A stretch of DNA of 64,000 bases, from NCBI GenBank assembly GCA_963695075.1, contig CAVOFR010000007.1:1680904-1744903 (forward strand), written 5' to 3'. Shown in pieces: positions 1,589 through 30,740 of this stretch. The stretch comes from an uncultured Acidimicrobiales bacterium. GTDB taxonomy: Bacteria; Actinomycetota; Acidimicrobiia; Acidimicrobiales; CAWCAL01. Within the stretch, counting starts at the first letter, position 1, and each line of letters opens with the position of its first letter. Under the pieces are notes generated by a model. That model made no database searches. It saw only the letters and a program-made list of their open reading frames with translations, and was not told the origin of the DNA. A program made the translations under genes and the position numbers.

Positions 1589-1610
1589 GGGCGTCCCCTC
1601 CTGGTGTCGT

Positions 1611-2354: not shown

Positions 2355-2355
2355 G

Positions 2356-3123: not shown

Positions 3124-3169
3124 CAGGCTTTCTCCTTGCCTTGTCTCGATGTTGTCTTCGGGGCCCGGT

Positions 3170-4617: not shown

Positions 4618-4665
4618 ACTCTCCCCCTTGGTACAGGTCGTCGACGGCGGACTCATCATGCCTCA

Positions 4666-4681
4666 ACTTAATCGATTAAGT
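4666..4681. promoter_or_regulatory. perfect 16-bp AT-rich palindrome ACTTAATCGATTAAGT in a divergent promoter region
   Basis: Self-complementary 16-mer centred in the 104-bp gap between divergent starts 4617 (-) and 4722 (+). It abuts a -10-like TATGAT (4681-4686). Related boxes occur at four other intergenic sites. Confidence 0.5.
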
Positions 4682-4721
4682 ATGATCGCGCCCGCTCGAC
4701 CGAAGGGAGGGGCCGGAACCA

Positions 4722-6023
4722 ATGCCGCAATACGACGTCATCGTGATCGGTGCCGGGATCTCCGGGCTCGGCGTGAGCGCGTTGCTTGCCGACGCGGGCC
4801 GCAGGGTCCTGACCCTGGAGCGGGCGAAGGCGATCGGCGGGCGGGCCTACTCGTTCCGTCAGCGCGGCCATATCACCAACACCGGCGGGCCACGGGCCGG
4901 GATCGAGGGCCGGAGGGTCGACGAGCTCTTCGCCCGGGTGGGCAGGGAGCCGGGCGAGCGCGGCTTCTTCGACGGCATCATGCACTTCCGCGACGGGGAG
5001 TTCGTCAGCCTGCCCGACACGGCGATGCAGGCTCCCCCCGACCAGGCCATGGCCCTGTTCCAGGCCCTGGACGAGGTCGGCGACGACGACCTGCCGGCGC
5101 TCGACGACATCTCGGCCCATGACTGGATCACGGCCCGGGTGCAGGACCGCGACCTGATCGACGTGTGTCGGCTCAGCTCCGTCGTGATGAGCACCTTGCC
5201 GCGACTGCGGGACATCGCGGCCAGCACGATGGTCGAGTCGATGCGCCTCGTGATGGGATTCCCGCGGATCTTCCTCGCCGCGGGCGGATACGGGGACTTC
5301 ATGCGCATCCTGGCCGAGGCCTCGGAGGAACGCGGCGGTGAGATCCGGACCCGGGCGCAGGCGACGGAGATCCTGATCGAGGACGGCGCTGCGCGCGGGG
5401 TCGTGGTCGAGGATCGCGACGGGAAGGCCGAGAGGATCGAAGCTCCGCTCGTCGTCACCGCCTTTCCGATCTGGGATCTCTTCGATCTCGCCGACGAGCG
5501 TGTCTTCGAACCGGAGTTCGTCGCGAAGGTGAGGCACCTCGGACGGAAGACCGCGCTGTTCGGGATCACCGCCTCGCTGCGAGAGCCGCTCTACCCGGGC
5601 AAGGAGTTCATCCTCACCGACGCGAAGAGAGCCGAGCATCCGTTCGCTGGCTTCATGGCCAGCAACGTCGCGCCGTCGCTGGCACCCGAGGGCGAGCACC
5701 TCTTCGAGGCCTGCTGCCAGTGCGACATCGAGCTCGGAGGCGATCGCGTCGAGCTCGAACGCCGGCTCGATCTGCTTCGCGAGGACATCGACGAGATGTT
5801 CCCGGGATGGGAGGGGAGCGCCAACTGGATCCGGACGATGTTCCACTGGGAGGAGCCGGCCCGAAACCCGGGGCGCGAGGGCGTCAATCGGCCGGGCCCG
5901 GTGGCCCCGGGTGCATCCGGCCTCTACTTCGCCGGAGACACCGTCTCATCCCGTTCACTCCCCGGACTGGAGTGCGCCGCCGACTCAGCCATGATATGCG
6001 CCGACCGGATCCTCGCGTCCTGA
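4722..6023 (+). CDS. NAD(P)/FAD-dependent oxidoreductase (phytoene-desaturase-like fold)
   Basis: N-terminal dinucleotide-binding motif DVIVIGAGISGLG...LERAKAIGGRA. C-terminal GLYFAGD motif. SD GAAGGGAGGGG lies upstream. Confidence 0.88.
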   Translation: MPQYDVIVIGAGISGLGVSALLADAGRRVLTLERAKAIGGRAYSFRQRGHITNTGGPRAGIEGRRVDELFARVGREPGERGFFDGIMHFRDGEFVSLPDTAMQAPPDQAMALFQALDEVGDDDLPALDDISAHDWITARVQDRDLIDVCRLSSVVMSTLPRLRDIAASTMVESMRLVMGFPRIFLAAGGYGDFMRILAEASEERGGEIRTRAQATEILIEDGAARGVVVEDRDGKAERIEAPLVVTAFPIWDLFDLADERVFEPEFVAKVRHLGRKTALFGITASLREPLYPGKEFILTDAKRAEHPFAGFMASNVAPSLAPEGEHLFEACCQCDIELGGDRVELERRLDLLREDIDEMFPGWEGSANWIRTMFHWEEPARNPGREGVNRPGPVAPGASGLYFAGDTVSSRSLPGLECAADSAMICADRILAS

Positions 6024-6104
6024 CCGCGTCCTGGGAAACCACACCGTCCTACGAGACGACACCGTCCTCAGAAACCCCGCCCGAATCAACAAGGAGCACA
6101 AGCA

Positions 6105-6545
6105 ATGACCAACCCGCACGAGAACGCAAAGGTCCACGTCACCCACGACTTCGCCACATCGGCGGACGAGCTCTGGGGGATCCTGGGCGACTTCAGCAAT
6201 CTGAGCTGGGTGCCGCTCGTTCATCACCACGAGTTCGAGGGTGAGGGCCCCGGCATGCAGCGCCACATGTACATCGACGAGACCACGGCGATCGTCGAGA
6301 GGCTCGAGGCCCTCGATGAGGCGACCAGGACCATCTCGTATTCGATTCCGGTCAACAACCCGCTTCCGATCGCCGACTACTACGCGACGATGACCGTCCA
6401 CGAGAAGGGTTCGGACACCTGCCAGCTCGAGTGGAGCTGCACCTGGTCCGAGCCGGTCGGCATCACCGAGGACGAGGCCGTCGTCGCCATCACCGCGTTC
6501 TACGGAACGGTCATCCCGGGAATCGAAGCGGTGGTCAACGGCTAG
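6105..6545 (+). CDS. SRPBCC (Bet v1 / polyketide-cyclase-like) family protein
   Basis: 146-aa ORF with a pattern typical of SRPBCC ligand-binding proteins. SD AAGGAG lies upstream. TAG stop sits inside CTAG at the repeat boundary. Confidence 0.75.
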   Translation: MTNPHENAKVHVTHDFATSADELWGILGDFSNLSWVPLVHHHEFEGEGPGMQRHMYIDETTAIVERLEALDEATRTISYSIPVNNPLPIADYYATMTVHEKGSDTCQLEWSCTWSEPVGITEDEAVVAITAFYGTVIPGIEAVVNG

Positions 6546-6835
6546 GCGAGTGGTTCCAAGGGGTTGGGTGGGGCCTGATCACAGGAACCGAGCGCGCCGC
6601 GCTCCCCTCTCGCCGAAATCTGGTCCCTCAGCGTCGGTAGCCGACGGCTACGGCCATCCGGTTCGACACTGCGCTGGTCGCCTCGGCCCCGGACAGACGA
6701 ACTGGCGGCCCAGGAGCCCAGAACTGGGTTCTGAGGCCGCGAGTTCGTGTTGACGAGACCTCGCGGGTCGGCTCGTCGCGCCCATCGGCGAACCGCCCGC
6801 CACGAGCGCGCCAACGACCCCTTGGAACCAACCAT
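6546..6835. repeat. MITE-like repeat, copy A (apparently full length)
   Basis: Perfect 13-bp inverted repeats TGGTTCCAAGGGG (6551-6563) and CCCCTTGGAACCA (6818-6830). CTAG flanks both sides (6542-6545, 6836-6839). Positions ~6598-6839 are the reverse complement of 24765-25005 at roughly 90% identity by eye. Confidence 0.8.
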
Positions 6836-6934
6836 CTAGCCGGCTGGGGTGTTCTGCGTCTGACTTCGCCGCGGAGAGTCCACGGGAAAATGACCCGAGT
6901 CTGATCGGCTTCTCGACAACGAGAGGAGCGTCAG

Positions 6935-7165
6935 ATGACCACGATGAGCGAGGGTCGGCGACGACCGAAGATGTTGCCAGCGGAGACGAAGTGGGAGGTC
7001 TCCTTGCAGGTGACCGGCGGCGAGATCAGCCAGGCCGATGCGGCCCGCAAGCGGGGTGTGGATGTGTCGACGATCATCACTATCCGCCGGACGGTGAAGG
7101 ATGCTGCGCTCGCGGCGTTGGGTCGCAAGCCGGGCCGGCCCGCGAAGGAAAGGAACTGGGAGCGC
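6935..7165 (+). mobile_element. truncated IS3-family-like transposase OrfA (N-terminal HTH only)
   Basis: The first ~75 codons (KMLPAETKWEVSLQVTGGEISQADAARKRGVDVSTIITIRRTVKDAALAAL..PGRPAKE) look like an IS3-type OrfA HTH. The rest of the 127-aa ORF is Arg/Gly-rich and not protein-like. No OrfB or catalytic domain follows. Confidence 0.55.
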
Positions 7166-7187
7166 GAAGCCGTGTTCCGCGGCGGCC

Positions 7188-7409: not shown

Positions 7410-7457
7410 GGGTGCTCCTCGCACGCGTCGTTCGGACCCGGGGGAAGGCCACCTTAA

Positions 7458-7477
7458 CTGAAGACGACTAAGTTAGG
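7458..7477. promoter_or_regulatory. AT-rich box (CTGAAG-ACG-ACTAAG, overlapping CTAAGTTAGG)
   Basis: The right half-site ACTAAG matches the boxes at 27261, 28838 and 30718. ACTAAGTTAGG matches the reverse complement of 27256-27266 at 10 of 11 positions. The left half-site is weak. Confidence 0.35.
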
Positions 7478-7488
7478 AGTTGGAGACA

Positions 7489-7519
7489 TTGACGAGCCGC
7501 TAACTGAATGGTCTAAAGT
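7489..7519 (+). promoter_or_regulatory. candidate sigma-70-type promoter giving a leaderless ligase mRNA
   Basis: TTGACG (7489-7494), a 19-nt spacer, then TAAAGT (7514-7519). The GTG start follows 7 nt later at 7527, with no SD in between. Confidence 0.35.
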
Positions 7520-7526
7520 CATCACC

Positions 7527-9203
7527 GTGTCCACGACAACCACCGGCGGTCGGCACGACTTCCCTCGCTTCGACGACGAGTACCGCGACCGGTGGATCGC
7601 CGCCGGAATGTGGCACGACCGGACGCTCCACGACCTCTTCGACGAGACCGTCGCCGCTCGAGGTGAACAGGTGGCGGTGATCACCAGAGACCGGCAGATG
7701 ACCTTCGCCGAGTTCAAGTCGGACGCGGACGCTCTCGCCGCCGGGCTCCTCGGGATCGGCGTCGAGCGAGGCGACATCGTCGCCGTGCAGCTCCCGAACT
7801 GGATCGAGTTCTGCCTACTGCAGATCGCGCTGTCCCGCATCGGGGCCGTGATCCAGCCGACCCATAGCGTCTTCCGGGAGCTCGAGCTCCGATCGCTGCT
7901 CGGATTCTGCGACACCGATCACATCGTCGTGCCCGACACGGTCGAAGGCCACGACTACGCCGGGGCGATCCGCAACATCAGGGCCGATCTCCCCGCACTC
8001 CGGACGATGATCGTGGCCCGGGGCGACCGTCCGGTCCGAGAAGCCGACGCCGAGGCCGGCCTGGACGCGTTGCTCGACGACGGCAAGCGCAACCTGGCGC
8101 GACTCGAGGATGTGACGACCGATCCCGACGACGTCTTCTACCTGAACTTCACGTCGGGCACCGAAGGGAACCCGAAGGGCTTCCTCCACACCCACAACAC
8201 GCTGATCTCCACCTTCACGACGATGTCGCAGGCCCTGGCCAGCCTCGACCCCGGCATGGTCAACCTCACCTGTTCGCCGATGACTCACAGCTTCGGCCAT
8301 TTCACCACCTACCAGTGCGTCCTCGGGGGTATCCCGATGGTCCTCGTCGATCGCTATCGGCCCGGCGACGTGCTGGAGCTGATCCAACGGGACCATGCGA
8401 CGTCGATCTCCGGTACACCGGCCCACCTGATCGGAATCCTCCATCATCCCGACTTCGCCAGTTTCGACACGTCGAGTGTGAAGTCGGTGAGTCTGGGCGG
8501 CGCACGCAGCTCGCCGGAGCTCATCGAGGAGCTCGAGGCCGTCTGGGGCGTGAAGTCGGCCAACACCTACGGCATGGGCGAGAACATCATCCACACCCGC
8601 ACCATGCCATGGGATCCCGAGGACAAGGCCGCCGAGTCGGTCGGCCAGCCCCTGTTCGGCTCCGAGCTGAAGATCGTCGATCCGGACGACCGCACCCGCG
8701 AGCTCGCCGCGGGGGAGGTGGGCGACATCATGTTCCGCGGCCCGACGCTGTTCCTCGCCTACCACAAGCAACCGGAGCTGACGGCGGAGACACGCGACGA
8801 CGACGGGTGGTTCGTCACCGGCGACCGTGGCCACGTCGACGACGAGGGCTACCTGTACTTCGCGGCCCGAGCCAAGGAAGTCATCAATCGGGGCGGCACG
8901 AAGATCTACCCCAAGGTCGTCGAGGAGCGCCTGGCCGGCCACCCCGACATCGAGGATGCGGCCGTGGTCGGCATGCCCGACGAGCGGCTCGGCGAACGGG
9001 TCTGCGCCTATGTGATCACGCGGGGCGGCGCGACCGTCGGCGTCGAGCAGCTCAAGGCCTACTTCGCGGAGCAGCGGGCCTCGAAGTCCCTGGTACCCGA
9101 AGCGGTCGTCGTCGTCGACGACTTCCCCATGACCCCCACCGGCAAGGTGGCCAAAGCCGCGCTGGCCGAACGTGCCCGCCAGGAGCGAGAGGTGAAGCCA
9201 TGA
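7527..9203 (+). CDS. AMP-dependent synthetase/ligase (acyl-CoA or aryl/alicyclic-CoA ligase)
   Basis: Adenylation motifs FTSGTEGNPKG, YGMGE, GWFVTGD and the C-terminal PMTPTGKVAK. Confidence 0.92.
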   Translation: MSTTTTGGRHDFPRFDDEYRDRWIAAGMWHDRTLHDLFDETVAARGEQVAVITRDRQMTFAEFKSDADALAAGLLGIGVERGDIVAVQLPNWIEFCLLQIALSRIGAVIQPTHSVFRELELRSLLGFCDTDHIVVPDTVEGHDYAGAIRNIRADLPALRTMIVARGDRPVREADAEAGLDALLDDGKRNLARLEDVTTDPDDVFYLNFTSGTEGNPKGFLHTHNTLISTFTTMSQALASLDPGMVNLTCSPMTHSFGHFTTYQCVLGGIPMVLVDRYRPGDVLELIQRDHATSISGTPAHLIGILHHPDFASFDTSSVKSVSLGGARSSPELIEELEAVWGVKSANTYGMGENIIHTRTMPWDPEDKAAESVGQPLFGSELKIVDPDDRTRELAAGEVGDIMFRGPTLFLAYHKQPELTAETRDDDGWFVTGDRGHVDDEGYLYFAARAKEVINRGGTKIYPKVVEERLAGHPDIEDAAVVGMPDERLGERVCAYVITRGGATVGVEQLKAYFAEQRASKSLVPEAVVVVDDFPMTPTGKVAKAALAERARQEREVKP

Positions 9204-10117
9204 GAGTCGGCCTCAGTTGGGACTTCGGGGGCGATGACGCCGCGACCACATGGCGGCGCGCCGCCGACGAAGCCGTGGCGGCCGACGGATTCGGCTTCGA
9301 CAGCATCTGGCTCGACGAATCGCGACAGGGCGCCACCGACTGCCCCTCGCCCGGGCTCTGGTTGACCCACCTCGCTCGATTGACGAAGACCGTGCAGCTA
9401 CGGGCGATCCGCCTCGTCACGGGAATGAGCCCGGTGCGGGTGGCCGAGGAGATCGCGGTGCTCGACCTGTTCTCCCGGGGCCGGGCCGGGCTGGCGTTCG
9501 CCGCCGCATCCGGGCAGGGCGTGCCGGCGGGCCGGGTGCACGAGACCCTCGACTTCGTCACCCACGCCTGGTCCGTCGACGAGTTCCGGTATCGCGGCGA
9601 CTTCGTGCGGTTCCCGTCCCACACCCCCGACGACGTCCCCGGCGGGGCGACCATCCCCGGGACCCGTGGCGCCTACCTGCCGCAGTGGGACTGGGGTCCG
9701 GATGCGCCCGACTTCCTGTCGATCACACCCAAGCCGTACAGCACGCGTCCGCCCGTCTACGCCGAGATCACCGACGACGACACCCTCGACTGGGCCGCAG
9801 CCGGCGGGATCTCGCCTCTGGTCCCGGCGCACACACCCACCGACGAGGCCATCGAGCGCCTGGCGCGCTACCGGAACCGGGCCGACGAGGCAGGGCGCCA
9901 TCGGGGCGACGTCGAGCCGGTCGTCGAGCGACACATCGTGATGGACGGCGAGGACGACGAGGTCACCATCGGCGGCGATTCGGCCACGCTCGTCGATGCT
10001 CTCCGGAACCTGGCAGCGCAGACGTCGGTGACCCATCTCGTGTGGCGGAGAAAGGGCAAGGCCGACGGGGACATCTACCGGTTCGCCCGAGAGGTGCAGC
10101 CCATGCTGCAGGCATAG
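9200..10117 (+). CDS. LLM-class (luciferase-like) flavin/F420-dependent oxidoreductase, type A
   Basis: The ATG at 9200 overlaps the ligase stop (ATGA). Starts MRVGLSWDFG; the GFDSIWLDE and FSRGRAGLAFA patterns are typical of LLMs. The track ORF from 8315 is an out-of-context N-terminal extension. Confidence 0.85.
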   Translation: MRVGLSWDFGGDDAATTWRRAADEAVAADGFGFDSIWLDESRQGATDCPSPGLWLTHLARLTKTVQLRAIRLVTGMSPVRVAEEIAVLDLFSRGRAGLAFAAASGQGVPAGRVHETLDFVTHAWSVDEFRYRGDFVRFPSHTPDDVPGGATIPGTRGAYLPQWDWGPDAPDFLSITPKPYSTRPPVYAEITDDDTLDWAAAGGISPLVPAHTPTDEAIERLARYRNRADEAGRHRGDVEPVVERHIVMDGEDDEVTIGGDSATLVDALRNLAAQTSVTHLVWRRKGKADGDIYRFAREVQPMLQA

Positions 10118-10143
10118 GGCGAGCAGAGAACGACAGGAGCAAG

Positions 10144-11136
10144 ATGGAATTCTGGACCGGCGCATTCGGGATCACGAGGATGCGCATGATGCCGAGCGCA
10201 TTGGCCGACGGCTACGACCTCTTCGTCCAGGACGCCGCCAATGCCGAGGCGATGGGGTTCGACGCATACGGCGCGCCGGAGCACCACTTCACCTACGACG
10301 GCTTCCTGCCCTTCCCGCTGCAGGCGCTGGCGGCGGCCGCGGCGAAGACGTCGAAGATCCGTCTCGTGACGGGAGCGATGCTCCAGACCCTCTACGACCC
10401 CCTAGAGGCCGCCGAGCATGCCGCGACGCTCGACGTCCTGTCCGGCGGTCGGGTCGTCCTCGGTCTCGGTATGGGCTATCGGCCGTTCGAGTTCGACGCG
10501 TTCGGCACCGAGAAGCGGACCCGAGGAGCTCGACTGCGCGAAGCGATGGAGGTGATCCGCCTCGCGACGACGGAGGACACCTTCTCCCACCAGGGCAAGC
10601 ACTACGCCTACGACGAGGTGACCCTCCGACCCACACCGGTCCAGCGGCCCATCGACATGTGGTACTGCGGCGGGACCACCGAGTCCGCGGCGCGGCGGGC
10701 CGGGAAGGCGGGCCTGCCGTACTGGCTCGCGAACTCGCCGTACGAGCGGGTCGAGGTCATCGTCGCGGCATACCGCGAGGCGGGCCGCGAAGCGGGCTGG
10801 CCCGAGGAGCGCCTCAAGGTCGCCGCTTTCAAGGACATATTCGTCGGCGAGACGATGGCCGAGGCCGAGATGATGCGCGAAGCGATGATCGAGACCTTCT
10901 ACCGGGAGCACATCCTCGGCTACGGCTACCTCGTCGACGACGACGGTCACCACGTCTACAACCCGACCGAAGACCATCCGATGTATCAGCGCTTCCTGGA
11001 CAGCCTGTTCTGCGGCTCGGTGGACGAGGTCGTCACCGAGCTGAAGCGCTACGAGAGCCTCGGCGTCGAGGCTCTCTTCTTTCCTTCGATCCAGCGCGAG
11101 GTCATCTCGACGCGGATCATGCCCGAATTCAAGTGA
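10144..11136 (+). CDS. LLM-class flavin/F420-dependent oxidoreductase, type B
   Basis: Internal ATG (MEFWTGAFG) 26 bp after the previous stop. Carries GFDAYGAPEHHF and LSGGRVVLGLGMGYRPFEF. Confidence 0.88.
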   Translation: MEFWTGAFGITRMRMMPSALADGYDLFVQDAANAEAMGFDAYGAPEHHFTYDGFLPFPLQALAAAAAKTSKIRLVTGAMLQTLYDPLEAAEHAATLDVLSGGRVVLGLGMGYRPFEFDAFGTEKRTRGARLREAMEVIRLATTEDTFSHQGKHYAYDEVTLRPTPVQRPIDMWYCGGTTESAARRAGKAGLPYWLANSPYERVEVIVAAYREAGREAGWPEERLKVAAFKDIFVGETMAEAEMMREAMIETFYREHILGYGYLVDDDGHHVYNPTEDHPMYQRFLDSLFCGSVDEVVTELKRYESLGVEALFFPSIQREVISTRIMPEFK

Positions 11137-11161
11137 CCACGGACTGACCGGGAGCCAACCC

Positions 11162-12220
11162 ATGGACATCATCGTCGGCCCGTACGGGATGCAGAGCCCC
11201 CACCCGCACCGTCGTCCGCACGTCGATCTGTACGAGGAGCTCATCGTTCACGCGCAGCGGGCCGAAGCGCTCGGCTTCGACGGCATCGCGCTCACCGAGC
11301 ACTCGTTCTGGTACGACGGCTACTGCCCGTCGTTGCTGCCCACTCTCGCCGCGGTCGCTCAGCACACCGAGCGGATCAAGCTCGTCACGGGCGCCCTGTT
11401 GTTGCCCCAGCACGACCCGCTGAAGGTGGCCGAGGAGGCCGCGGTCGTCGACAGCCTGTCGGGCGGACGTCTCGTGCTCGGTATGGGAGCCGGCTATCGG
11501 CCGGAGGAGTTCCTCGGCCACGGAGTTCCCGAGGGCCGCTGGGGCGCCCGCCTCTTCGAGGCCATGGAGGTCGTGCGTCTCGCCCTCACCCACGAGACGT
11601 TCTCGTTCCACGGCGACTTCTACGACTACCAGGACGTGTCGCTCGCGACTCGCCCCGTTCAGTCACCGCCACCCCAGTGGGTCTGCGCTGGCTATGCCGA
11701 CTGGTCGGCCAAGGGATCGGGGCGAAGAGGTTGGCCCTACTGCACGACCGGAGACGTCGAAGGTGGCGGCAAGATCTTCGACCTCTACGAGGAGGCCGCG
11801 GCGGCCGCGGGCCACGACCCCTCGACGACCAGTCGGGGCCTCTTCCGCGACATGCTCGTCATGCCGACCGAGCGCGAAGTCGAAGCCATCGCCGACGAGG
11901 ACTTCTGGACCGCGTTCAACGACCAGTTCCTCGGCTTCGGTTTCCTGAAGCGGATGAATCCCGACGGCGAGCAGATCACGGAGCTCCCGGCCGAGCTCAA
12001 GGACATGTTCGTCTACAGCCCGCGCAACGCGGTGGGAACGCCGGACCAGGTGCGCGAGCAGATGAAGCCCGTCATCGACATGGATCTCGACCTGCTGATC
12101 GTGCGTACGATCTGGGCCAACTTCAACCACGAGAGGGCGTTGAAGACCATGGAGACGTTCGCCCGAGAGGTCATGCCGTACCTCCGAGAAGAGGCCGAAC
12201 GAGTGCGGGAGGCCCGCTGA
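11162..12220 (+). CDS. LLM-class flavin/F420-dependent oxidoreductase, type B-prime
   Basis: Carries GFDGIALTEHSF and LSGGRLVLGMGAGYRPEEF. Clear paralog of 10144-11136. Confidence 0.9.
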   Translation: MDIIVGPYGMQSPHPHRRPHVDLYEELIVHAQRAEALGFDGIALTEHSFWYDGYCPSLLPTLAAVAQHTERIKLVTGALLLPQHDPLKVAEEAAVVDSLSGGRLVLGMGAGYRPEEFLGHGVPEGRWGARLFEAMEVVRLALTHETFSFHGDFYDYQDVSLATRPVQSPPPQWVCAGYADWSAKGSGRRGWPYCTTGDVEGGGKIFDLYEEAAAAAGHDPSTTSRGLFRDMLVMPTEREVEAIADEDFWTAFNDQFLGFGFLKRMNPDGEQITELPAELKDMFVYSPRNAVGTPDQVREQMKPVIDMDLDLLIVRTIWANFNHERALKTMETFAREVMPYLREEAERVREAR

Positions 12221-14511: not shown

Positions 14512-14512
14512 C

Positions 14513-18629: not shown

Positions 18630-18656
18630 TCGACTTCGACAAGAAAGGCGTAGACA

Positions 18657-22273: not shown

Positions 22274-23948
22274 GCCGGACCGCGGCGGGCCCGGGGACGT
22301 GGACGATCAACCGTCGACGTTGTCGAGCCTGCTTCGGCGCAGCGTCGAGTCCCACGGTGATCGCCCCGCGCTCATCACCGAGGAGACGCGGCACACCTAT
22401 CGGGAGCTGGCCGAGCTGGTCGAGCGCTACCAGCGGGCGCTGGTGTCCTGTGGTGTCGGAAAGGGCTCGCACGTCGGTCTGCTCATGGAGAACGATCCCC
22501 ACTGGGTGGCCTTCGCTTTCGCCGCGACCGGCCTGGGTGCGTTGCTCGTTCCCATCAGCACCTTCGTGCGTCGTGACGATCTCGCCTACCAGTTGACCCA
22601 CGCCGACGTCGAGTACCTCTTCATGACATCGCGGTTCCTCGACAACGACTACCTCGGGATGCTCACCGGGATCCTGCCCGCGCTCGAGGAGGCCGAATCC
22701 GGGGGGCTCTACCTTCCCGAGGTCCCGTCATTGCGCCACGTCGTCGTGCGCGGTGCCGAGGACCCACCCTCGGGATGTCGATCGTGGGACGACTTCCTCG
22801 CCCGGGCCGACGAGGTTCCGGCGGCGGTCGTTGCGGGCCTGGAATCCGCTGTCGATCCAGAGGACGCGTGCTACCTGTTGACGACCTCGGGCACCACAGC
22901 CCGACCGAAGGGCGTGTTGCTCTCACACCGTGCCGTCGCGGGCAATGGTGGCCGAATCGGCGACTACCAGGGGTTGGGCACCGATGACGTGGTGTGGTTC
23001 TACTTCCCGCTGTTCTTCTCGGCCGGCTGCGTCAACGTCATGCTGGGTGCCCTCTCGCACGGTGCTGCTCTCATCATCCAGCCGAACCTCGATCCGGCGG
23101 TGACGCTCGAGCTGATCGAGCGGGAGGAAGCGACCACCTGGCACCTGTGGCCCCATCAGCTGCAGCAGCTGCTCGACCATCCCGACTGGAGCACCCGCGA
23201 CCACAGCGGGCTCCACAAGGGCACCGCGCCGTACGACGTGCTGTGCGAGACGCCCCCGGCCGACGGGCTCGGAGGCGTCAACATGTACGGGATGACCGAG
23301 ACCGCCACCGCATTCTCCTGTACCCGAGCCGACGAATCTCTCGATATCCGCATGAGCACCCAGGGGCATCTGCTTCCCGGAAACGAGATCAAGGTCGTCG
23401 ACCCCGAAACGGGCGAGCGTCTGCCCGACGGCCAGCAGGGGGAACTCTGCGTCAGGGGTCCCAGTGTCATGAGCCGCTACTACAAGGTCGACCCGGCCAC
23501 GACCTTCGACTCCGAGGGGTTCTTCCCCACCGGCGACGCCGGCTTCGTCGACGGTGACGGCCGAGTGCACTTCGTCCAGCGGCTGAAGGACGTGATCAAG
23601 ACCGGCGGGATCAACGTGAGCCCGGCCGACATCGAAGGGTCTTTGGCGCGCATCCCGGGTGTCCGCGCCGCCCATGTGTTCGCGCTTCCGGGCGACGACA
23701 AGGGCGAGCTGGTCGGTGTCGCACTCGTGCCCGATGTCGGGGCCACGATCGACGAGGTCGGGGTGAGCGAGTTCTGTCGATCCGAGCTTCCCGGATACAA
23801 GCGGCCGCGAGGTGTGCTCGTGCTCGGCGCGGACGACGTGCCGATGACCGGTACCGGAAAAGTGCAGAAACACGTCCTGCGGGATCGTCTCCGGGCGGCG
23901 ATCGATCAGGGGCTGGGACCGTTCGTCGAGTGGGAAGTCGTCGAGTAG
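22266..23948 (+). CDS. AMP-dependent synthetase/ligase (acyl-CoA synthetase)
   Basis: Carries TSGTTARPKGV, YGMTE, GFFPTGD and PMTGTGKVQK. The TTG start is taken from the track and overlaps the upstream gene by 8 nt, so the exact start is uncertain. Confidence 0.9.
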   Translation: MSEPDRGGPGDVDDQPSTLSSLLRRSVESHGDRPALITEETRHTYRELAELVERYQRALVSCGVGKGSHVGLLMENDPHWVAFAFAATGLGALLVPISTFVRRDDLAYQLTHADVEYLFMTSRFLDNDYLGMLTGILPALEEAESGGLYLPEVPSLRHVVVRGAEDPPSGCRSWDDFLARADEVPAAVVAGLESAVDPEDACYLLTTSGTTARPKGVLLSHRAVAGNGGRIGDYQGLGTDDVVWFYFPLFFSAGCVNVMLGALSHGAALIIQPNLDPAVTLELIEREEATTWHLWPHQLQQLLDHPDWSTRDHSGLHKGTAPYDVLCETPPADGLGGVNMYGMTETATAFSCTRADESLDIRMSTQGHLLPGNEIKVVDPETGERLPDGQQGELCVRGPSVMSRYYKVDPATTFDSEGFFPTGDAGFVDGDGRVHFVQRLKDVIKTGGINVSPADIEGSLARIPGVRAAHVFALPGDDKGELVGVALVPDVGATIDEVGVSEFCRSELPGYKRPRGVLVLGADDVPMTGTGKVQKHVLRDRLRAAIDQGLGPFVEWEVVE

Positions 23949-23955
23949 GAAGCAG

Positions 23956-24768
23956 GTGGTCGAGATGAGCGGATCCGAACAACGCCTCGGAGGCATGGTG
24001 GCCGTCGTGACCGGCGGGGCCAGTGGGATCGGCGAGGGAATCGCACGGAGATTCGTGGCCGAGGGGGCCAACGTCGTCATCGGAGACATCCAGGACGAGG
24101 CGGGCGAGGCGGTCGTCGACGCTCTCGGTGAGCGTGCCGCCTATCGCCGGTGCGACGTGACCGACGAAGGGGAGGTCGCGGCCCTCGTGCAGGCCGCCCC
24201 GGACGAGTTCGGCAGGCTCGACATCATGGTGAACAACGCCGGGGCCATCGGGGCCAGGGGTTCGATCCTCGAGGTGACCGCCGACGAGTGGGATGCGACG
24301 ATCAACCTGTTGTTGCGCAGTGTGTTCCTCGGCATGCGCCACGCGGGGCGCCTTCTCGTCGACCAGGGCGACGGCGGCTCGATCATCAGCACGTCGAGCA
24401 TCGCGGCTCACGCGCCGGGGAACGGGCCTCACGCCTACGGCACCGCCAAGGCGGGTGTCGTCCACCTCACCCAGCGGGTGGCGCTAGAGCTCGGGGAGCA
24501 TCGGATCCGGGTGAACGCGATCTGCCCCGGTGGGATCGTGACGCCCCTGGTGCTCGGGGCGGTCGGTCTGGGTCCCGAGGCGACCGGCGTCATGGAGGAT
24601 GCCGCCGCGGCCATGCGACCGTATCCCCGAGCAGGCAGGACCGAGGACGTCGCGGCGACCGCGGCCTGGCTGGCGAGCCGAGACGGCGAGTTCGTGACCG
24701 GTCAGGCGATCACGGTCGACGGCGGCGAGAGCGTCGGCCCCAAGTGGTCCGACCAGATGGTCCACTAG
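23956..24768 (+). CDS. short-chain dehydrogenase/reductase (SDR)
   Basis: Carries TGGASGIGEG, NNAG and YGTAK. The TAG stop lies inside the CTAG that begins repeat copy B. The start may instead be the ATG at 23965. Confidence 0.9.
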   Translation: MVEMSGSEQRLGGMVAVVTGGASGIGEGIARRFVAEGANVVIGDIQDEAGEAVVDALGERAAYRRCDVTDEGEVAALVQAAPDEFGRLDIMVNNAGAIGARGSILEVTADEWDATINLLLRSVFLGMRHAGRLLVDQGDGGSIISTSSIAAHAPGNGPHAYGTAKAGVVHLTQRVALELGEHRIRVNAICPGGIVTPLVLGAVGLGPEATGVMEDAAAAMRPYPRAGRTEDVAATAAWLASRDGEFVTGQAITVDGGESVGPKWSDQMVH

Positions 24769-25005: not shown

Positions 25006-25012
25006 AGCCTCT

Positions 25013-25414
25013 CTACTCGAACCAGAGGGCGTCGAGTACGTGGTGCGAGATCCGCCATCCGTCGGCGGTTCGTACGAGCTCTTCCCGGTAGACACCACCG
25101 ACGACGAAGTTGCCGTCGGGGAGCAGGTGCGTGGCGATCAGATTCGCCCGGAGGTGAGCCGTGTCTCCCGACACCTCGACCTCGCAGTTGCTGATCGAGT
25201 GGTGGGTGCGGTCGTACACGGAGAGGGCGGCACGCACGGCCTCCTCGATGGCGGTGTAGCCCTCCAGCTGTGGTCCCCCGGCGAGGATGCCGGTGGCCCC
25301 AGGGGTGAAGCAGGTCTCGAGGCGAGCCCAGTCCTTCTCGTCGAGGCTGCTGCCATAGCGGAACAGCACATCGGCGACGTCGGCTCGGTCCCGCAGCGTC
25401 AGGTTCTCGTCCAC
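25013..25414 (-). CDS. SnoaL-like / NTF2-fold protein
   Basis: 133 aa. The pattern DVLFRYGSSLDEKDWARLETCF...GGVYREELVRTADGWRI is typical of SnoaL_4 proteins. Confidence 0.8.
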   Translation of the reverse strand: MDENLTLRDRADVADVLFRYGSSLDEKDWARLETCFTPGATGILAGGPQLEGYTAIEEAVRAALSVYDRTHHSISNCEVEVSGDTAHLRANLIATHLLPDGNFVVGGVYREELVRTADGWRISHHVLDALWFE

Positions 25415-25424
25415 GTCCGCCTCG

Positions 25425-26183
25425 TCAGGATCTGACGGCCATGATGCCGCCGTCGATGCTGATGCCGTCGCCGGTGACGAACCGCGCGTCGTCGCTGCAG
25501 AGGAACAGGACGACGCCGACCACGTCGTCGGGCGTGCCGACCCGACCCATTGGCGACTTGTTCGCCCAGTCGGTCTTGAAGTCGGGCATCATGGCGGCGA
25601 TCGGCTCGGTCATCGGGGTCTCGATGTAGCCGGGGTGGATGCAGTTGACGCGGATGTCGGGAGCGCCTTCTTCGGCCAGTGATCGGCACAGCCCGACCAG
25701 GGCGGTCTTCGCCGTGCTGTAGGCGGGGAGCATCGCGTTGCCCACGAGTCCCTCGATGCTGGATGCGAGCACCATGGCTCCGCCCCCCGAGCGCCGCATG
25801 GCCGGAAGTGCCGCTTTGGCGGTGCGGAAGACCCCGTTGAGGTTCACGTCGACCACGCTGTAGAAGTCCTGCTCGCCGATCATCTCCACTCCACCGGCAC
25901 CGACCATTCCGGCGCTGGCGAAGACGTTGTCGAGGCGGCCGTAGCTCTCCTCGATGGCGGCTACGGCGTCAATGCACGTCGCGAGGTCGGTCACGTCGCA
26001 CGGAGCGCTGAGTGCGGTGCCGCCCGCCTGTTCGATCAACTCGACCGTCTCGTCGGAGCTCTCCTGGTTTAGATCGCTGATGACGACCTTGGATCCCTCG
26101 GCGGCGAACCGCAGCGCGGTGGCTCGGCCGAGCCCCGAGGCGCCTCCGGTCACCCAGGAGACCTGGCCCTCGAATCGGTTCAT
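25425..26183 (-). CDS. short-chain dehydrogenase/reductase (SDR)
   Basis: Carries TGGASGLGRA and YSTAK. Start placed at ATG 26183 because AAGGAG lies 5 nt upstream. The track ORF extends to 26216. Confidence 0.9.
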   Translation of the reverse strand: MNRFEGQVSWVTGGASGLGRATALRFAAEGSKVVISDLNQESSDETVELIEQAGGTALSAPCDVTDLATCIDAVAAIEESYGRLDNVFASAGMVGAGGVEMIGEQDFYSVVDVNLNGVFRTAKAALPAMRRSGGGAMVLASSIEGLVGNAMLPAYSTAKTALVGLCRSLAEEGAPDIRVNCIHPGYIETPMTEPIAAMMPDFKTDWANKSPMGRVGTPDDVVGVVLFLCSDDARFVTGDGISIDGGIMAVRS

Positions 26184-26203
26184 TGCCTGCTCCTTCGGTC
26201 GGT

Positions 26204-27226
26204 TCACACGAGCCACTGGGGGAGGGGAGGAAAGACGCTGTACTCGGCGACCCCGGTCCCGGTCTCGCCGGTCTCCTCGACCTCCCAGTCGACGAAGGCC
26301 TCGTAGCAGTCCATCCGGTTCTCGAGCTCATTCTCGCCCCGGAGCCACAGCTTGATCTGGCCGTGCTTCTTGGTCGAGCGAACGTGGATGACCTCGCCGT
26401 CGGGCGTCGTCAGCTCGTATCGGAATGCGTTCGCGTCGCGGACCCCGTCGGGTTCGGTGTCGAGAATCTCGGCGGCGGCATTGAGCATCGCTCCGCTGCC
26501 CTGCGCAGTCGACTCGAAGCCGCCGATGCTCGCCTCCTCGTTCGCCTCGCCCATCTCGGACTGGAAGTAGAACCCGAACACGTTGATGTGTCGGTCCGGG
26601 AGCTGGATCGAGGGCCAGAAGTGGCCGGGCATGTGCCCGCCGCCGAGCTGCCATTCCTGATCCTCGGCGAATCGGTCCGACCAGGTGTGATCACGGTGCG
26701 ACCAGCAGTCGATCGAACGGGTCTCACCCTCGGCGGGCCCACCCCGGATCTCGAAGTTGCCGGTGCAGTCCATGCCCTGCTCGAAATGGCCGGCGTGGAA
26801 GGGAAAGGCGACGGCGAGCGGGTCACCGCGGACCGAATCGTGGTAGTCGAACGGGGCGAAGCGACCCTTGAAATCGAGCTCGAACCCGTAGCGGGGGCCG
26901 TCCATCTCGATGCGGATGTGCTCGAAGGGGTCCACGACCTCGTAGCTGAGTGTGCCGTCGGTCCAGGGCCCTGAGTCCGGCTCGGGATCGAGGGGGGCCC
27001 GGAGCCCGTAGGACTGCTGGACTCCGTCGATGACGAAGTAGCTCTCGTGGCGACCGAAACCATGGTTGGTCAGGTGCCAGTGGAGCACCCCGAAGACGTT
27101 GGCTTCGGGGTCGACCACGCTCACCCAGAGCGTGTCGCCGAAGAGCCCATCGGCCCCCTCGGGGGCGGCATGTCGTCCCTCGTCGGCGGCCGTGAGGCCC
27201 TTCGGTAGTTCGAATCGAGTTCCCAT
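26204..27226 (-). CDS. conserved hypothetical protein (no family confidently recognised)
   Basis: 340-aa ORF with good codon bias, His/Trp/Phe-rich and beta-rich in appearance. First gene of a three-gene minus-strand unit. Confidence 0.7.
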   Translation of the reverse strand: MGTRFELPKGLTAADEGRHAAPEGADGLFGDTLWVSVVDPEANVFGVLHWHLTNHGFGRHESYFVIDGVQQSYGLRAPLDPEPDSGPWTDGTLSYEVVDPFEHIRIEMDGPRYGFELDFKGRFAPFDYHDSVRGDPLAVAFPFHAGHFEQGMDCTGNFEIRGGPAEGETRSIDCWSHRDHTWSDRFAEDQEWQLGGGHMPGHFWPSIQLPDRHINVFGFYFQSEMGEANEEASIGGFESTAQGSGAMLNAAAEILDTEPDGVRDANAFRYELTTPDGEVIHVRSTKKHGQIKLWLRGENELENRMDCYEAFVDWEVEETGETGTGVAEYSVFPPLPQWLV

Positions 27227-27260
27227 CGTGCTCCCAGTTCAGGCCGTGGACGGAGCCTAA

Positions 27261-27275
27261 CTTAGGCTGACTAAC
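27261..27275. promoter_or_regulatory. AT-rich inverted-repeat box CTTAGG-CTG-ACTAAC
   Basis: 6-3-6 inverted repeat with 5 of 6 matches per arm to CTTAGT/ACTAAG. Lies 35-49 nt upstream of the minus-strand start at 27226. Confidence 0.45.
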
Positions 27276-27305
27276 AAAGCGAGCCCCTGGTCGCCGCGCG
27301 ATCGC

Positions 27306-28310
27306 TCACGCGGTCTGGAGCTCGCCCTCTTCGCGCAGCCACTGCAGGGTGTCCCTCGCGATGTCCTCCAGGGAGGGCGGGTCGTACCCGAGCTCCTCGA
27401 TCGCCTTGCCGGAGTTCGTGTACCAGCAGTGGCGGAACGCCTTGGTGAACGTGCGGGTGATGGCTGGGGGACGGTTGGTGACGGCCGCCACGAGCTCGAG
27501 CGCGGCCCCGACCGCGTAGAAGACCGAGCCCGGGATCTCGTACTTCGGCGCCTTCGCTCCCGCCACCTCGGCGATGACCCGGGCCATCTCGAGCTGGGTG
27601 GTGTTCGGACCGCCGAGGAGGTAGTTCTCTCCGGTCCGGCCCTTCTCGTAGGCCAGGATGTGGGCTCGGCCGACCTCGCGGATGTGACAGAACGAGGTCT
27701 TGGCCGGCATGACCGCAGGTAGCCGGCCCGCCGCGATCTGCTTGAACAGGATCGTGAAGTTCGGATCCCGCGGTCCGAGGACGGCGGCGGGGTTCAGGAT
27801 GACCGCGTCGAGTCCCTCCTCGATGCCGGATCGCACCTCGTTTTCGGCGAGCCACTTGGTGCGGTCGTAGTTGACCGGCGAGATGAGCGCCTTGGAGGCC
27901 AACCCCTCATGGAGGGTCTCGTTCTGCTGGCCGTAGGCGGCGCCACTCGACGTGTAGACGAAGCGGTTTGCCCCGTTCTCGAGGGCCGCGGCGACGAGCG
28001 ACCGGGTGCCGAGGACGTTGTCCCGGTACTGCGCGTCGAACTCGCGGGGCCAGAACGTGCTGTTGCCGGCGACGTGGAAGACGCAGTCGAGGCCGGTGGG
28101 CATGTCCGCGGCCACCCGATCGGCGTCGTGGATGTCGGTCTCCACCCATTCGATGTCGTAGTCGGCGAGGTCGTCGATGTTGGACGTGGCCCGGCGCGAT
28201 GCGGTGACCTTCCAGCCGGCCTCGCAGAGCTGGATGGCGACCTCGGAGCCTACGAACCCCGATGCTCCGGTGACGAAAGCGTGCGACATGTCGTTGTCCC
28301 CCGAGCTCAT
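27306..28310 (-). CDS. NAD-dependent epimerase/dehydratase family (extended SDR, dihydroflavonol-reductase-like)
   Basis: Carries VTGASGFVGSEV and YDRTK. Start set at ATG 28310, which overlaps the upstream stop (ATGA). The ATG at 28289 is an alternative. Confidence 0.88.
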   Translation of the reverse strand: MSSGDNDMSHAFVTGASGFVGSEVAIQLCEAGWKVTASRRATSNIDDLADYDIEWVETDIHDADRVAADMPTGLDCVFHVAGNSTFWPREFDAQYRDNVLGTRSLVAAALENGANRFVYTSSGAAYGQQNETLHEGLASKALISPVNYDRTKWLAENEVRSGIEEGLDAVILNPAAVLGPRDPNFTILFKQIAAGRLPAVMPAKTSFCHIREVGRAHILAYEKGRTGENYLLGGPNTTQLEMARVIAEVAGAKAPKYEIPGSVFYAVGAALELVAAVTNRPPAITRTFTKAFRHCWYTNSGKAIEELGYDPPSLEDIARDTLQWLREEGELQTA

Positions 28311-28780
28311 TCCATGTGCCCGACGAGCTTGCGGTACACCTTGGAGGCTCGCGGGAATGCGTCGATCATGTCTCCCCACAGGTCGAAGTAGTCCCGGTGG
28401 TCGATGACGCGACCGTCCTCGTCGAGGAGGAGTCTCGTGCACCCATCGTCGGCGAGGGTCGGGATCCGGCTGTTGATGACCATCTCGGTGGTCCATTCCA
28501 CGAAGATGACGTCTCCCTCCTGCATCACCCGGTGGACGGTGCAGCGCAATTCCTTGCAGCGCTGAGGGAAGCGGAGCAGCATCTCGATCACGGCGTCACG
28601 GCCGTGGACTTCCTGGATCGCGTCGCGGAAGCGCACGTCGGGGTGATAGTGCTTTCGCACGATCGACGTGTCGACGCCCTCGCCGGTCTCCGACTTGCCC
28701 CGGAAGGAGAACATCTTCCTCGCCGTGTCCGCGGTGAATCGCTCGTCGGTGTCATCGGCCGGGGCCGTTTCGGTTTCCAT
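28307..28780 (-). CDS. SnoaL / ketosteroid-isomerase-like NTF2-fold protein
   Basis: Carries HYHPDVRFRDAI...VIFVEWT. Start at ATG 28780 (METETAP) has GAGGAG 9 nt upstream. The track ORF extends to 28828. Confidence 0.78.
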   Translation of the reverse strand: METETAPADDTDERFTADTARKMFSFRGKSETGEGVDTSIVRKHYHPDVRFRDAIQEVHGRDAVIEMLLRFPQRCKELRCTVHRVMQEGDVIFVEWTTEMVINSRIPTLADDGCTRLLLDEDGRVIDHRDYFDLWGDMIDAFPRASKVYRKLVGHME

Positions 28781-28837
28781 GCCTTGGCTCCTCGCTTGGT
28801 CCGGTCGCCGGGCGGCGGCCACGTCCATCGAGACTAG

Positions 28838-28852
28838 ATTAGTGGGACTAAG
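28838..28852. promoter_or_regulatory. AT-rich inverted-repeat box ATTAGT-GGG-ACTAAG
   Basis: Sits in the divergent region between starts 28780 (-) and 28882 (+). Overlaps a -10-like TAGATT (28835-28840). Confidence 0.45.
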
Positions 28853-28881
28853 TAACGCAGGCGTCGGGGACGGAGCGCGAG

Positions 28882-29712
28882 ATGGATGTCGAGGACCTCA
28901 ACGGCCGCTGGGTGGGCGTCACCGGCGCCGGGAGCGGAATCGGCGAGGCGACCGCCAGGTTCGCGGCCGAACGGGGCGCAAGCGTCGCCATCTGTGACAT
29001 CGACGCCGGTCGATTGGACGCGGTGGAAGCGTCGCTCCGCGCCGGTGGCACCGACGTGGTGGCCGTCGAGGTCGACGTCGCCGACGTGGCGTCGATGGAC
29101 CGGTTCGCCGAGGTAGTGCACGATCGTGTCGACGCGCTCGACATCCTGGTCAACAACGCAGGGGTGACGCTCGCCGCGAGTGCGCTCGAGACCTCGCCCG
29201 AGGACTGGGACTGGGTGCTCGGCATCGATCTGATGGGCGTGATCCACGGATGCAGCGCCTTCGGCCCGGCGATGCGCGACCGGGGGAGTGGGGGCCACGT
29301 CGTGAACATCGCATCGATGGACGGGTTCGCCGCGATGGAGGGCTTCGCCGCGTACTCCACCGCCAAGTTCGCCGTCGTCGGCTACTCCGAGAGCCTCCGG
29401 GCCGAGCTCGCCCGCGCCGGGATCGGCGTGAGCGTCATCTGTCCCGGCCCCATCCGCACCGCGCTCGTCGCCGAGATGCCCGAGCGGGGTCGGTTCGCCG
29501 GCGCCTACGGCGATCGCATCCGCTCCGAGAACAGGAACAAGGGAGTGCCGGCCGAGCGCGTCGCCAAGGCCGTGTTCCGCTCGGTCGAGAAGAACCGCGC
29601 CGTCTGTCCGGTCACCACGCTCTCGTGGATGACGTACTACTCGAAACGAATCATGCCCGGTATGACCGCGAGGGCGCTCGACCGGGTGGAGCGGGACTTC
29701 CTCCGGAACTGA
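28882..29712 (+). CDS. short-chain dehydrogenase/reductase (SDR)
   Basis: Carries TGAGSGIGEA, NNAG and YSTAK. Confidence 0.9.
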   Translation: MDVEDLNGRWVGVTGAGSGIGEATARFAAERGASVAICDIDAGRLDAVEASLRAGGTDVVAVEVDVADVASMDRFAEVVHDRVDALDILVNNAGVTLAASALETSPEDWDWVLGIDLMGVIHGCSAFGPAMRDRGSGGHVVNIASMDGFAAMEGFAAYSTAKFAVVGYSESLRAELARAGIGVSVICPGPIRTALVAEMPERGRFAGAYGDRIRSENRNKGVPAERVAKAVFRSVEKNRAVCPVTTLSWMTYYSKRIMPGMTARALDRVERDFLRN

Positions 29713-29745
29713 CGAGCCGGGGCCCCTCTACGACCCCGGGGTTGT

Positions 29746-30558
29746 CTAGAACGACAGGCGGATCGTGCACGACGTCTCGGGCAGGTGGGGGTCGAACTCC
29801 ATCTTGATACCCGGATCGCCGTCGAAGATCTCTTCGAAGACGCCCTTGCAGATCAGCAGGCAGCCCTGCTCCGGCAGCGCATCGGGCTTGGGGAGCGAGG
29901 CGGGATCCGGGCAGGTGTGCCACGCGCAGTTGGGAACCTCCATCACGGCCGTGCCCGCGGCTTCGTCGATCTCGGTCATCTCGGACTCGCCGACCAGGAA
30001 GGCGGCGAATCGGCCCGGGTCGAAGACCTTCATCAGCACGGAGCGCAGGGCACCGGGCTCGGACTGCTGGCCGGGGTTGCGCTGCCGCTCGAGCTCGGCC
30101 TTCATCGCCTGCTTGTTGAGGAAGTCCATCTCCTTCTGGGAGTTCTGACGCGAGATGGCCGCACAGGTGCCGATCACGAGCTCCTCGTACTGGGCCTGGG
30201 TGAAGTACTTGCGCAGCTCGAGCAGGGCCCACTCGATCTCGCGCACGAAGTTGCCGTAGTTCTTGCGCCAGCGTTCGCGGGGCGAATCCCAGAAGCGGAG
30301 CTTCTCGCGCCGCGATCGGATCTCCAGATAGGCGCGGTCGACCTCGGCGGGGTCCTCTGCGGCCATCCGGATCATCGGGAAGAACGTGAGCTGGACCATT
30401 GGTCCACCCTGGTCGGCGATCATGCGCTGCGACATGGCCATGTCGATGAACGCCTGGAGGCCCCAGTTGTAGACGAAGCCGCCTTCCGGTCGTTGCACCA
30501 CGGGCTTCTGTGGTCCGGTCGGTGCGGCCTTCGGTCGGATGTCGGTCTCGGTCTGCAT
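29746..30558 (-). CDS. Cys-rich hypothetical protein, possibly ATC-hydrolase-like; paralog of 278-1015
   Basis: Start at ATG 30558 (MQTETD) has GGGGGAG upstream. Shares FWDSPRERWRKNYGNFVREIEWA and the C-terminal block NCAWHTC...CLLICKGVFEE...TSCTIRL with 278-1015. Confidence 0.75.
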   Translation of the reverse strand: MQTETDIRPKAAPTGPQKPVVQRPEGGFVYNWGLQAFIDMAMSQRMIADQGGPMVQLTFFPMIRMAAEDPAEVDRAYLEIRSRREKLRFWDSPRERWRKNYGNFVREIEWALLELRKYFTQAQYEELVIGTCAAISRQNSQKEMDFLNKQAMKAELERQRNPGQQSEPGALRSVLMKVFDPGRFAAFLVGESEMTEIDEAAGTAVMEVPNCAWHTCPDPASLPKPDALPEQGCLLICKGVFEEIFDGDPGIKMEFDPHLPETSCTIRLSF

Positions 30559-30717
30559 TGTGCTCCCCCGTGCAATCGGCAACCAGACAGATACTCGCAC
30601 ACGGTCGACGGGCCTGCCGGGTTTCCGTCGCGGCGCGGGCCGGGTCCGCGGGAACGTCGGACTCGGCGCCGCCGCTGGACAGGTGATCGGCACCGTGTCA
30701 TGGTGACAACCCGGTAA

Positions 30718-30732
30718 CTTAGTCATACTAAG
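30718..30732. promoter_or_regulatory. perfect AT-rich inverted repeat CTTAGT-CAT-ACTAAG
   Basis: Perfect 6-3-6 inverted repeat 9-23 nt upstream of ATG 30741. It overlaps a candidate -10 element (TACTAA); GTGACA lies 17 nt further upstream. Confidence 0.5.
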
Positions 30733-30740
30733 GAACGCTC

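Follow-up and report, generated by a model that had tools for sequence, protein, structure and literature searches.

Palindromic boxes at catabolic promoters of an uncultured Acidimicrobiales bacterium: predicted operators of a TetR_C_33-type repressor

In the KstR and KstR2 steroid regulons, an AT-rich palindromic operator is repeated at several catabolic promoters in GC-rich DNA, genes for acyl-CoA ligases, acyl-CoA dehydrogenases and short-chain dehydrogenases/reductases (SDRs) abound, and the regulator belongs to the TetR family. A similar picture is met in a 64,000-nt stretch of contig CAVOFR010000007.1 (assembly GCA_963695075.1), hereafter called the window, from an uncultured Acidimicrobiales bacterium, where AT-rich inverted repeats ("boxes") occupy five promoter regions of a comparable set of catabolic genes and a TetR-family regulator is predicted. 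Unlike the steroid regulons, the window boxes read T[A/G]ACTTA[G/A]T-N3-A[C/T]TAAGT[C/T]A rather than TnnAACnnGTTnnA (KstR) or AnCAAGnnCTTGnT (KstR2), the predicted regulator falls in the TetR_C_33 subfamily, and the host is an uncultured Acidimicrobiia bacterium. A motif scan of the window returned zero matches to the KstR or KstR2 consensus, in agreement with the first-pass annotation made from the same DNA, and the window boxes are outside the KstR and KstR2 regulons. To our knowledge, essentially nothing is known of transcriptional regulation in this Acidimicrobiia lineage.

Two further types of TetR system are close to the arrangement described here. Loci L118 and L378 have the layout of the divergent switches TetR/TetA and QacR/QacA, the order being TetR gene, box and carotenoid oxygenase; in the window, however, the regulator adjoins no box, and with at least five separate promoters the regulon spans several operons, unlike a one-gene switch. 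The QacR operator binds two dimers, and overlapping double sites with a 14-nt offset beside the TetR genes of L297, L298, L304 and L299 resemble it. The mmpL-tetR efflux operons of Actinomycetota, such as those with the TetR regulators of mycobacterial MmpL transporters, are similar in that more distant members of the subfamily lie downstream of an MMPL-type gene with the same 21-bp palindrome at its promoter, whereas catabolic enzymes, not a transporter, are targeted in the window. The IdeR/DtxR 19-bp TWAGGTWAGSCTWACCTWA and the DosR 20-bp TTSGGGACTWWAGTCCCSAA gave best window matches with at least six mismatches, none in register with a box; two seven-mismatch IdeR matches overlap site 2a only partly. 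A resemblance to GntR/DasR sites was set aside, since the sites do not share a conserved GT/AC core.

The boxes are regarded here as predicted operators of a homodimeric TetR_C_33 (WHG) repressor acting on some 30 genes through five or more promoters, a reading to which we assign a probability of roughly 0.7, and the regulon may now tentatively be assigned to a TetR_C_33-type repressor. The earlier proposal of a repressor operator common to several catabolic promoters, with its regulator encoded outside the window, is supported by footprints in related genomes, by the association of the motif with TetR_C_33 genes and by a syntenic TetR gene.

All five boxes named by the first-pass annotation are present in the window sequence where it had placed them, but its 15-mers are only the cores of a 21-bp palindrome, and a position weight matrix (PWM) added a sixth site that it had overlooked (site 2b, Table 1). 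The longer palindrome is TAACTTAG-N5-CTAAGTTA. With both arms aligned, the half-site is 10 nt long, TAACTTAGTC, and is inverted about a single centre base; its consensus is T[A/G]ACTTA[G/A]TN, so that the 21-bp site consists of two 10-bp half-sites and a 1-nt centre. The 16-mer at 4666-4681, which had been listed as the same box and was kept out of PWM training, does share the half-sites, but its spacing is 1 bp shorter and represents a conserved variant (site 1), whose mode of binding may differ. An inverted repeat of 21 bp with two-fold symmetry fits the length of about 15-30 bp typical of a TetR operator.

Across the 64-kb window, sites 2a, 3, 4 and 5 match TAACTTAG-N5-CTAAGTTA with at most 3 of 16 mismatches, while 0.00 such matches were expected from 100 dinucleotide shuffles and about 0.01 in the 4.76 kb of non-coding window DNA by a rough zero-order estimate. 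The half-site PWM scored the five 21-bp sites at 19.8-27.5 bits, against 12.3 bits for the top decoy on both strands. When genes were called by codon-usage score, every box lay within a short spacer between genes, at 5-55 nt from the start codon downstream, and a PWM scan of both strands found no box in the other intergenic regions, as had been noted before. The AT-rich boxes are a real motif, specific to these spacers. That the likeness among AT-rich intergenic stretches arose by chance has practically negligible probability: the 5-mer CTAAG alone is not enriched over the AT-rich intergenic background (about 7 expected by estimate, 5 seen), yet all five occurrences of CTAAG/CTTAG in the 64 kb lie inside a box, and chance is contradicted by the shuffle and PWM statistics and by the co-occurrence with TetR loci, having already been refuted by conservation at orthologous positions.

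This conservation was followed in relatives found by protein search (73-82 % protein identity) and scanned with the PWM trained on window sites. The syntenic relatives comprised L291 and L295 (on the same 634-kb contig; 79-82 %), L292 (77 %), L293/L294 (L293 76 %) and L296 (80 %, Acidimicrobiia FR_2), and their boxes are listed in Table 1. In the spacer alignments, the boxes form conserved islands within surrounding sequence that is diverged or unalignable. In L292, the gene for the 340-aa protein has been relocated and the box has moved along with it. The window has an intact FAD amine-oxidase-like gene (4722-6023), of which L295 (~9060-9310) and L296 (8855-9232) hold decayed or truncated copies, and site 1 is kept in both relatives. 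A more distant ortholog, L005, has a box at 2545, 47 nt upstream of the oxygenase gene. This footprinting supports a functional protein-binding site in all five promoter regions.

Among 19 sites, T1 and T5 occur without exception in all 38 half-sites, the arms show 51 one-arm changes from the consensus and 3 compensatory ones, and 119 of 190 arm positions are able to pair; base pairing kept by compensatory changes, as in a structured RNA or hairpin, was not found in these sites. Because the arms deviate independently while T1 and T5 stay invariant, the pattern is characteristic of a dimeric protein that binds DNA and not of a hairpin. It is thus very improbable that the boxes are promoter elements without a dedicated regulator (AT-rich -10 or UP elements belonging to leaderless actinobacterial promoters) or hairpins of 5'-leader RNA. 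Such an origin would agree with their AT-richness and closeness to start codons, with the TANNNT-like hexamers read inside several boxes, and with the ends of sites 2b and 5 lying 5 nt before a start codon. However, the two-fold symmetry, with T1 and T5 in both arms, is conserved across orthologs, which a directional promoter element does not need; one box serves divergent gene pairs; the window's other promoters have no box; the motif co-occurs with a single TetR subfamily; and the arm changes given above contradict a hairpin.

The link to the regulator subfamily came from a scan of the exact outer palindrome across 185,579 species genomes, which gave 86 loci; most of them are chance matches in AT-rich genomes, and every high-GC match adjoins a regulator gene. 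In L118, an unrelated actinomycete metagenome-assembled genome (MAG), the spacer that separates a carotenoid oxygenase, 43 % identical to that of the window, from a TetR gene (TetR_N + TetR_C_33) is filled by a perfect TAACTTAGTATAACTAAGTTA; in L378 and L379, a TetR gene whose product is 68 % identical to L118's and a carotenoid-oxygenase gene diverge from a spacer that contains ACTTAGT repeats. The pattern TAACTTA-N7-TAAGTTA (at most 3 mismatches) had 43 matches, in 38 of 80 loci of the TetR_C_33 subfamily, compared with 2 matches in the 379 kb of control high-GC loci, one of which is the true L005 site. When the spacing was varied, N7 alone was enriched (43 plus 19 matches; 0-3 for other spacings). 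Across genomes, the motif accompanies a single TetR subfamily and keeps a constant spacing, as is expected of a TetR operator.

The subfamily boxes adjoin the TetR gene or sit at an mmpL-tetR operon promoter. They adjoin the TetR gene in all of the closest TetR orthologs (L297, L298, L300 and L304), while more distant members have the box at the mmpL-tetR promoter, often directly after TTGACA/TTGACG. The recognition helix of the TetR_C_33 (WHG) subfamily reads about VGxTPP(A/S)IYLHF and hardly differs between the clade of L118 and that of the Acidimicrobiia (VGCT(A/P)P(S/A)IYLHF). Only distant relatives of the TetR protein were found among solved structures (best profile E-value 1.7e-18), and literature searches on the operator, on TetR regulators linked with carotenoid cleavage and on the TetR_C_33/WHG subfamily found nothing relevant. 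An exact-pattern scan of metagenomes gave, among the matches listed, 45-47 % GC repeats and no useful Acidimicrobiia match.

Beside TetR genes, overlapping double palindromes with a 14-nt offset and a shared central TAACTTA were also observed (Table 1), an arrangement which suggests two dimers on one composite operator. In L297, a different perfect palindrome, CTAGATTGACACTGTCAATCTAG, lies at 8940-8990 between an amine-oxidase gene and a gene for 239 aa just upstream of TetR, and is possibly the operator of another regulator.

As for the location of the regulator gene, Pfam scans found no TetR, GntR or IclR gene in the window, which agrees with the first reading of this DNA. A regulator gene that itself carries the box, which that reading had proposed to look for, is present in relatives (L296/L299, L297, L298, L300, L304, L118 and L378) but not in the window. 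In L296/L299 the order is TetR, a 122-aa gene, two FAD genes, a 152-aa gene and the homolog of window gene 278-1015, with a box ~150 nt upstream of TetR; L296 opens with the C-terminal part of a TetR_C_33 protein, which shares 62 % identity with the TetR of L118. Since window bases 1-115 match the end of the 152-aa gene, this synteny would place the TetR gene ~4 kb beyond the left end of the window. Candidates for a hidden local regulator among proteins without Pfam match were rejected: the open reading frame (ORF) 6931-7452 (minus strand) is a wrong-frame artefact; the genes 29746-30558 and 278-1015 encode paralogous Cys/His proteins without a helix-turn-helix (HTH); and ORF 6935-7318 (plus strand) has a weak HTH_28 match (E = 0.022) and lies in a 700-nt insertion that is absent from relatives.

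Several points weigh against assignment to a TetR_C_33 repressor. The window encodes no TetR, and we infer the TetR gene ~4 kb to the left in the source genome from synteny only. A search of species genomes for close homologs of the L118 TetR found only three relatives, none with a strong box beside the TetR gene; two homologs at 46-50 % identity, L168 and L169, have no strong box beside the gene, L169 having a weak one at an mmpL promoter. A strict sigma-70 scan of the window found no promoter at any box, so the promoter positions are putative, and the overlap of boxes with -10 hexamers that had been proposed earlier was not confirmed. Site 1, with a spacing 1 bp shorter (6-nt inner), is kept in the window, L295 and L296 and occurs nowhere else, and a single dimer geometry that fits both the 20-bp and the 21-bp forms is not obvious. 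Finally, the same outer palindrome was found in other phyla: TAACTTAG(C/G)-N3-(G/C)CTAAGTTA precedes Phd/VapC-type operons (L101 6540, L121 5315 and L148 2664; Rhodoplanes, Acidobacteriota) and adjoins MarR-like genes whose products end in a Cys-rich domain (L096 3043 and L151 4548; Lysobacter, Gemmatimonadota). Unrelated regulator families thus appear to use the same outer sequence, which means that the sequence alone does not dictate the regulator family.

These last loci, together with the absence of TetR from the window and the presence in it of a NarL/LuxR-type regulator, are what speaks for a regulator of another family, either MarR-like, of the Xre/antitoxin type, or the LuxR-type response regulator at 37471-38106, in which case the link to TetR would be coincidental here. 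We consider this unlikely: at half-site position 9, the MarR and Phd/VapC sites have C or G but the window sites and L118 have T; in Actinomycetota the palindrome tracks the TetR_C_33 subfamily (38 of 80 loci), a member of which flanks the syntenic island; and the two-component block has no box nearby.

For site 1, either the dimer tolerates the shorter spacing or a paralog binds. That two related regulators are at work, one on the 21-bp sites and a paralog on the 20-bp site at the APH/FAD-oxidoreductase promoter, was judged quite unlikely, a little more so than a regulator of another family. The conserved 6-nt inner spacing, unique to this site, and the paralogous TetR-FAD loci in sample ERZ25039603 (L297 versus L295) would agree with it; however, site 1 has the same half-sites as the 21-bp sites (20.1 bits with a PWM not trained on it), no second regulator was identified, and some TetR dimers accept a 1-bp change in spacing. 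A broader proposal is that a TetR subfamily with a single conserved 21-bp operator, widespread in uncultured Actinomycetota as an mmpL-tetR autoregulatory switch, was recruited in this Acidimicrobiia lineage to a multi-operon regulon of ~30 genes for degrading a lipophilic substrate, site 1 representing a second mode or a paralog and hence two-tier control; this is possible but doubtful.

If the boxes are operators of a TetR_C_33 repressor, a TetR homodimer would bind each site, occlude the promoter and block RNA polymerase at the five promoter regions, which together would drive ~30 genes of the 34-kb catabolic island, F420/luciferase-type monooxygenases among them. A substrate or intermediate of the pathway would then bind the C-terminal domain and release the repressor. 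Binding, occlusion and ligand release are drawn from the established behaviour of the TetR family. The positions of sites 2b and 5 would be consistent with leaderless or short-leader transcripts. Because the pairing with carotenoid-oxygenase genes is conserved, it suggests an apocarotenoid-, isoprenoid- or stilbenoid-like inducer.

Such a mechanism, a TetR-type repressor with palindromic operators, is textbook and unsurprising, and the regulon prediction is sound. For this uncultured branch of the Acidimicrobiia, it provides a concrete regulon map of six sites, five or more promoters and ~30 genes, and it would tie many unannotated redox and CoA-dependent genes into one pathway, including those for the 340-aa protein and for the Cys/His protein of 245-270 aa, two families without Pfam match. 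It also assigns a predicted operator consensus to an uncharacterised TetR_C_33 subfamily common in environmental Actinomycetota, which may be used to predict targets of the subfamily elsewhere, such as mmpL operons and carotenoid-oxygenase genes.

Table 1. Coordinates of the sites, spacers and predicted target units in the window and of boxes in related loci
Feature	Locus	Coordinates	Strand	Sequence or content	Remarks
Site 1	window	4664..4683		CAACTTAATCGATTAAGTAT	20-bp variant, same half-sites, no centre base; 20.1 bits (untrained PWM, gap 0 only); 46 nt upstream of APH start (4617, minus), 38 nt upstream of FAD oxidoreductase ATG (4722)
Site 2a	window	7455..7475		TAACTGAAGACGACTAAGTTA	26.8 bits; 51 nt upstream of 13-gene operon GTG, 45 nt from divergent small ORF
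Site 2b	window	7501..7521		TAACTGAATGGTCTAAAGTCA	19.8 bits; newly added site; ends 5 nt before GTG 7527; preceded by conserved TTGACG
Site 3	window	27258..27278		TAACTTAGGCTGACTAACAAA	24.0 bits; 31 nt upstream of 340-aa gene (start 27226, minus)
Site 4	window	28835..28855		TAGATTAGTGGGACTAAGTAA	24.6 bits; between divergent SnoaL_2 gene (start 28780, minus) and SDR gene (ATG 28882)
Site 5	window	30715..30735		TAACTTAGTCATACTAAGGAA	27.5 bits; ends 5 nt before carotenoid-oxygenase ATG (30741)
Spacer	window	4618-4721			flanked by divergent APH and FAD oxidoreductase
Spacer	window	7410-7526			flanked by divergent small ORF and 13-gene operon
Spacer	window	27227-27305			upstream of 340-aa gene
Spacer	window	28781-28881			flanked by divergent SnoaL_2 and SDR
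Spacer	window	30559-30740			flanked by divergent Cys/His protein and carotenoid oxygenase
Predicted unit	window	1049..4617	-	APH phosphotransferase, 149-aa protein, two SDRs, PNPOx-like protein	membership inferred from site 1
Predicted unit	window	4722..6545	+	FAD amine-oxidase-like oxidoreductase, SRPBCC (Polyketide_cyc2) protein	Pfam
Predicted unit	window	7527..24768	+	13-gene operon	behind sites 2a and 2b; gene calls, Pfam
Predicted unit	window	25013..27226	-	340-aa protein, SDR, SnoaL_4	behind site 3
Predicted unit	window	27306..28780	-	SnoaL_2 protein, 3-beta-HSD/epimerase-like protein	behind site 4
Predicted unit	window	28882..29712	+	SDR gene	behind site 4; divergent from SnoaL_2 unit
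Predicted unit	window	30741..33307	+	carotenoid cleavage oxygenase (RPE65 family), beta-lactamase-fold hydrolase	behind site 5
Carotenoid-oxygenase box	L291; L292; L293	9973; 9974; 9973			each ends 7-8 nt before ATG
SnoaL_2/SDR spacer box	L291; L292; L293	6275; 6801; 8205
340-aa gene box	L291; L292	4625; 13288
Site 2a ortholog	L295	9927-9947
Site 2b orthologs	L295; L296	9972-9992; 9962-9982			L296 has 2b only
Site 1 orthologs	L295; L296	8994-9013; 8838-8857		20 bp	same short spacing
Double sites	L297; L298; L304; L299; L378	10723-10757; 3744-3778; 3619-3653; ~2798-2834; 4930-4960

According to the gene calls and Pfam matches, bases 1-34,000 of the window form a single catabolic island. The unit at 1049..4617 is syntenic in L295 and L296. 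The 13-gene operon encodes an acyl-CoA synthetase, a second AMP-ligase, four luciferase-like monooxygenases, two acyl-CoA dehydrogenases, an OYE/dienoyl-CoA-reductase-like protein, an amidohydrolase, a MaoC-like hydratase, a double family III CoA-transferase and an SDR. The public call of its first gene (P0121, 531 aa) starts at 7608, 27 codons after GTG 7527; orthologs of 555-562 aa extend over the longer N-terminus, and the longer form from GTG 7527 is probably right. It is from this start that site 2b ends 5 nt before the start codon. Divergent from the operon and sharing sites 2a and 2b is a small coiled-coil ORF of 73 aa (7188-7409, minus strand; MSKLVDIIAQERRLQRL...), the start region of which is kept in L295 (39-aa call) and L296 (61-aa call).

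For the carotenoid oxygenase of the window, the closest relatives that carry a label come from Acidimicrobiia MAGs (Ilumatobacteraceae, Iamiaceae) and reach 66 % identity at most. In several relatives, a molybdopterin oxidoreductase is divergent from the carotenoid oxygenase (L291 7448-9604, L292 7673-9829, L005 269-2497); the one in L291 has its own box (9653-9673), and the one in L005 shares that of the oxygenase. In other Acidimicrobiia orthologs (L001, L018, L016 and L003; 55-66 %), GT(A/G)AACA-N-TGTT(C/T)AC is found upstream of the carotenoid oxygenase instead, and these lineages appear to control the gene through a different operator.

The position of the relatives' molybdopterin oxidoreductase is occupied in the window by one of the two paralogous 245-270-aa Cys/His proteins (278-1015, plus strand; 29746-30558, minus strand), which have no Pfam match and no HTH and share RWDSP..RW.K.YGNFVRE.EWA and a C-terminal Cys/His pattern. 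Directly upstream of TetR, L300 has homologs of the Cys/His protein, and L297 and the contig of P0247 have an unannotated gene of about that size at the same position; the protein looks like a conserved partner of the regulon.

Finally, a stretch of ~700 nt (6531-7228) that separates the SRPBCC gene from the operon promoter is missing from L295/L296 and has low coding potential. The ORF 6935-7318 within it resembles the N-terminus of an insertion sequence (IS)-type transposase, and the stretch is probably an insertion remnant.

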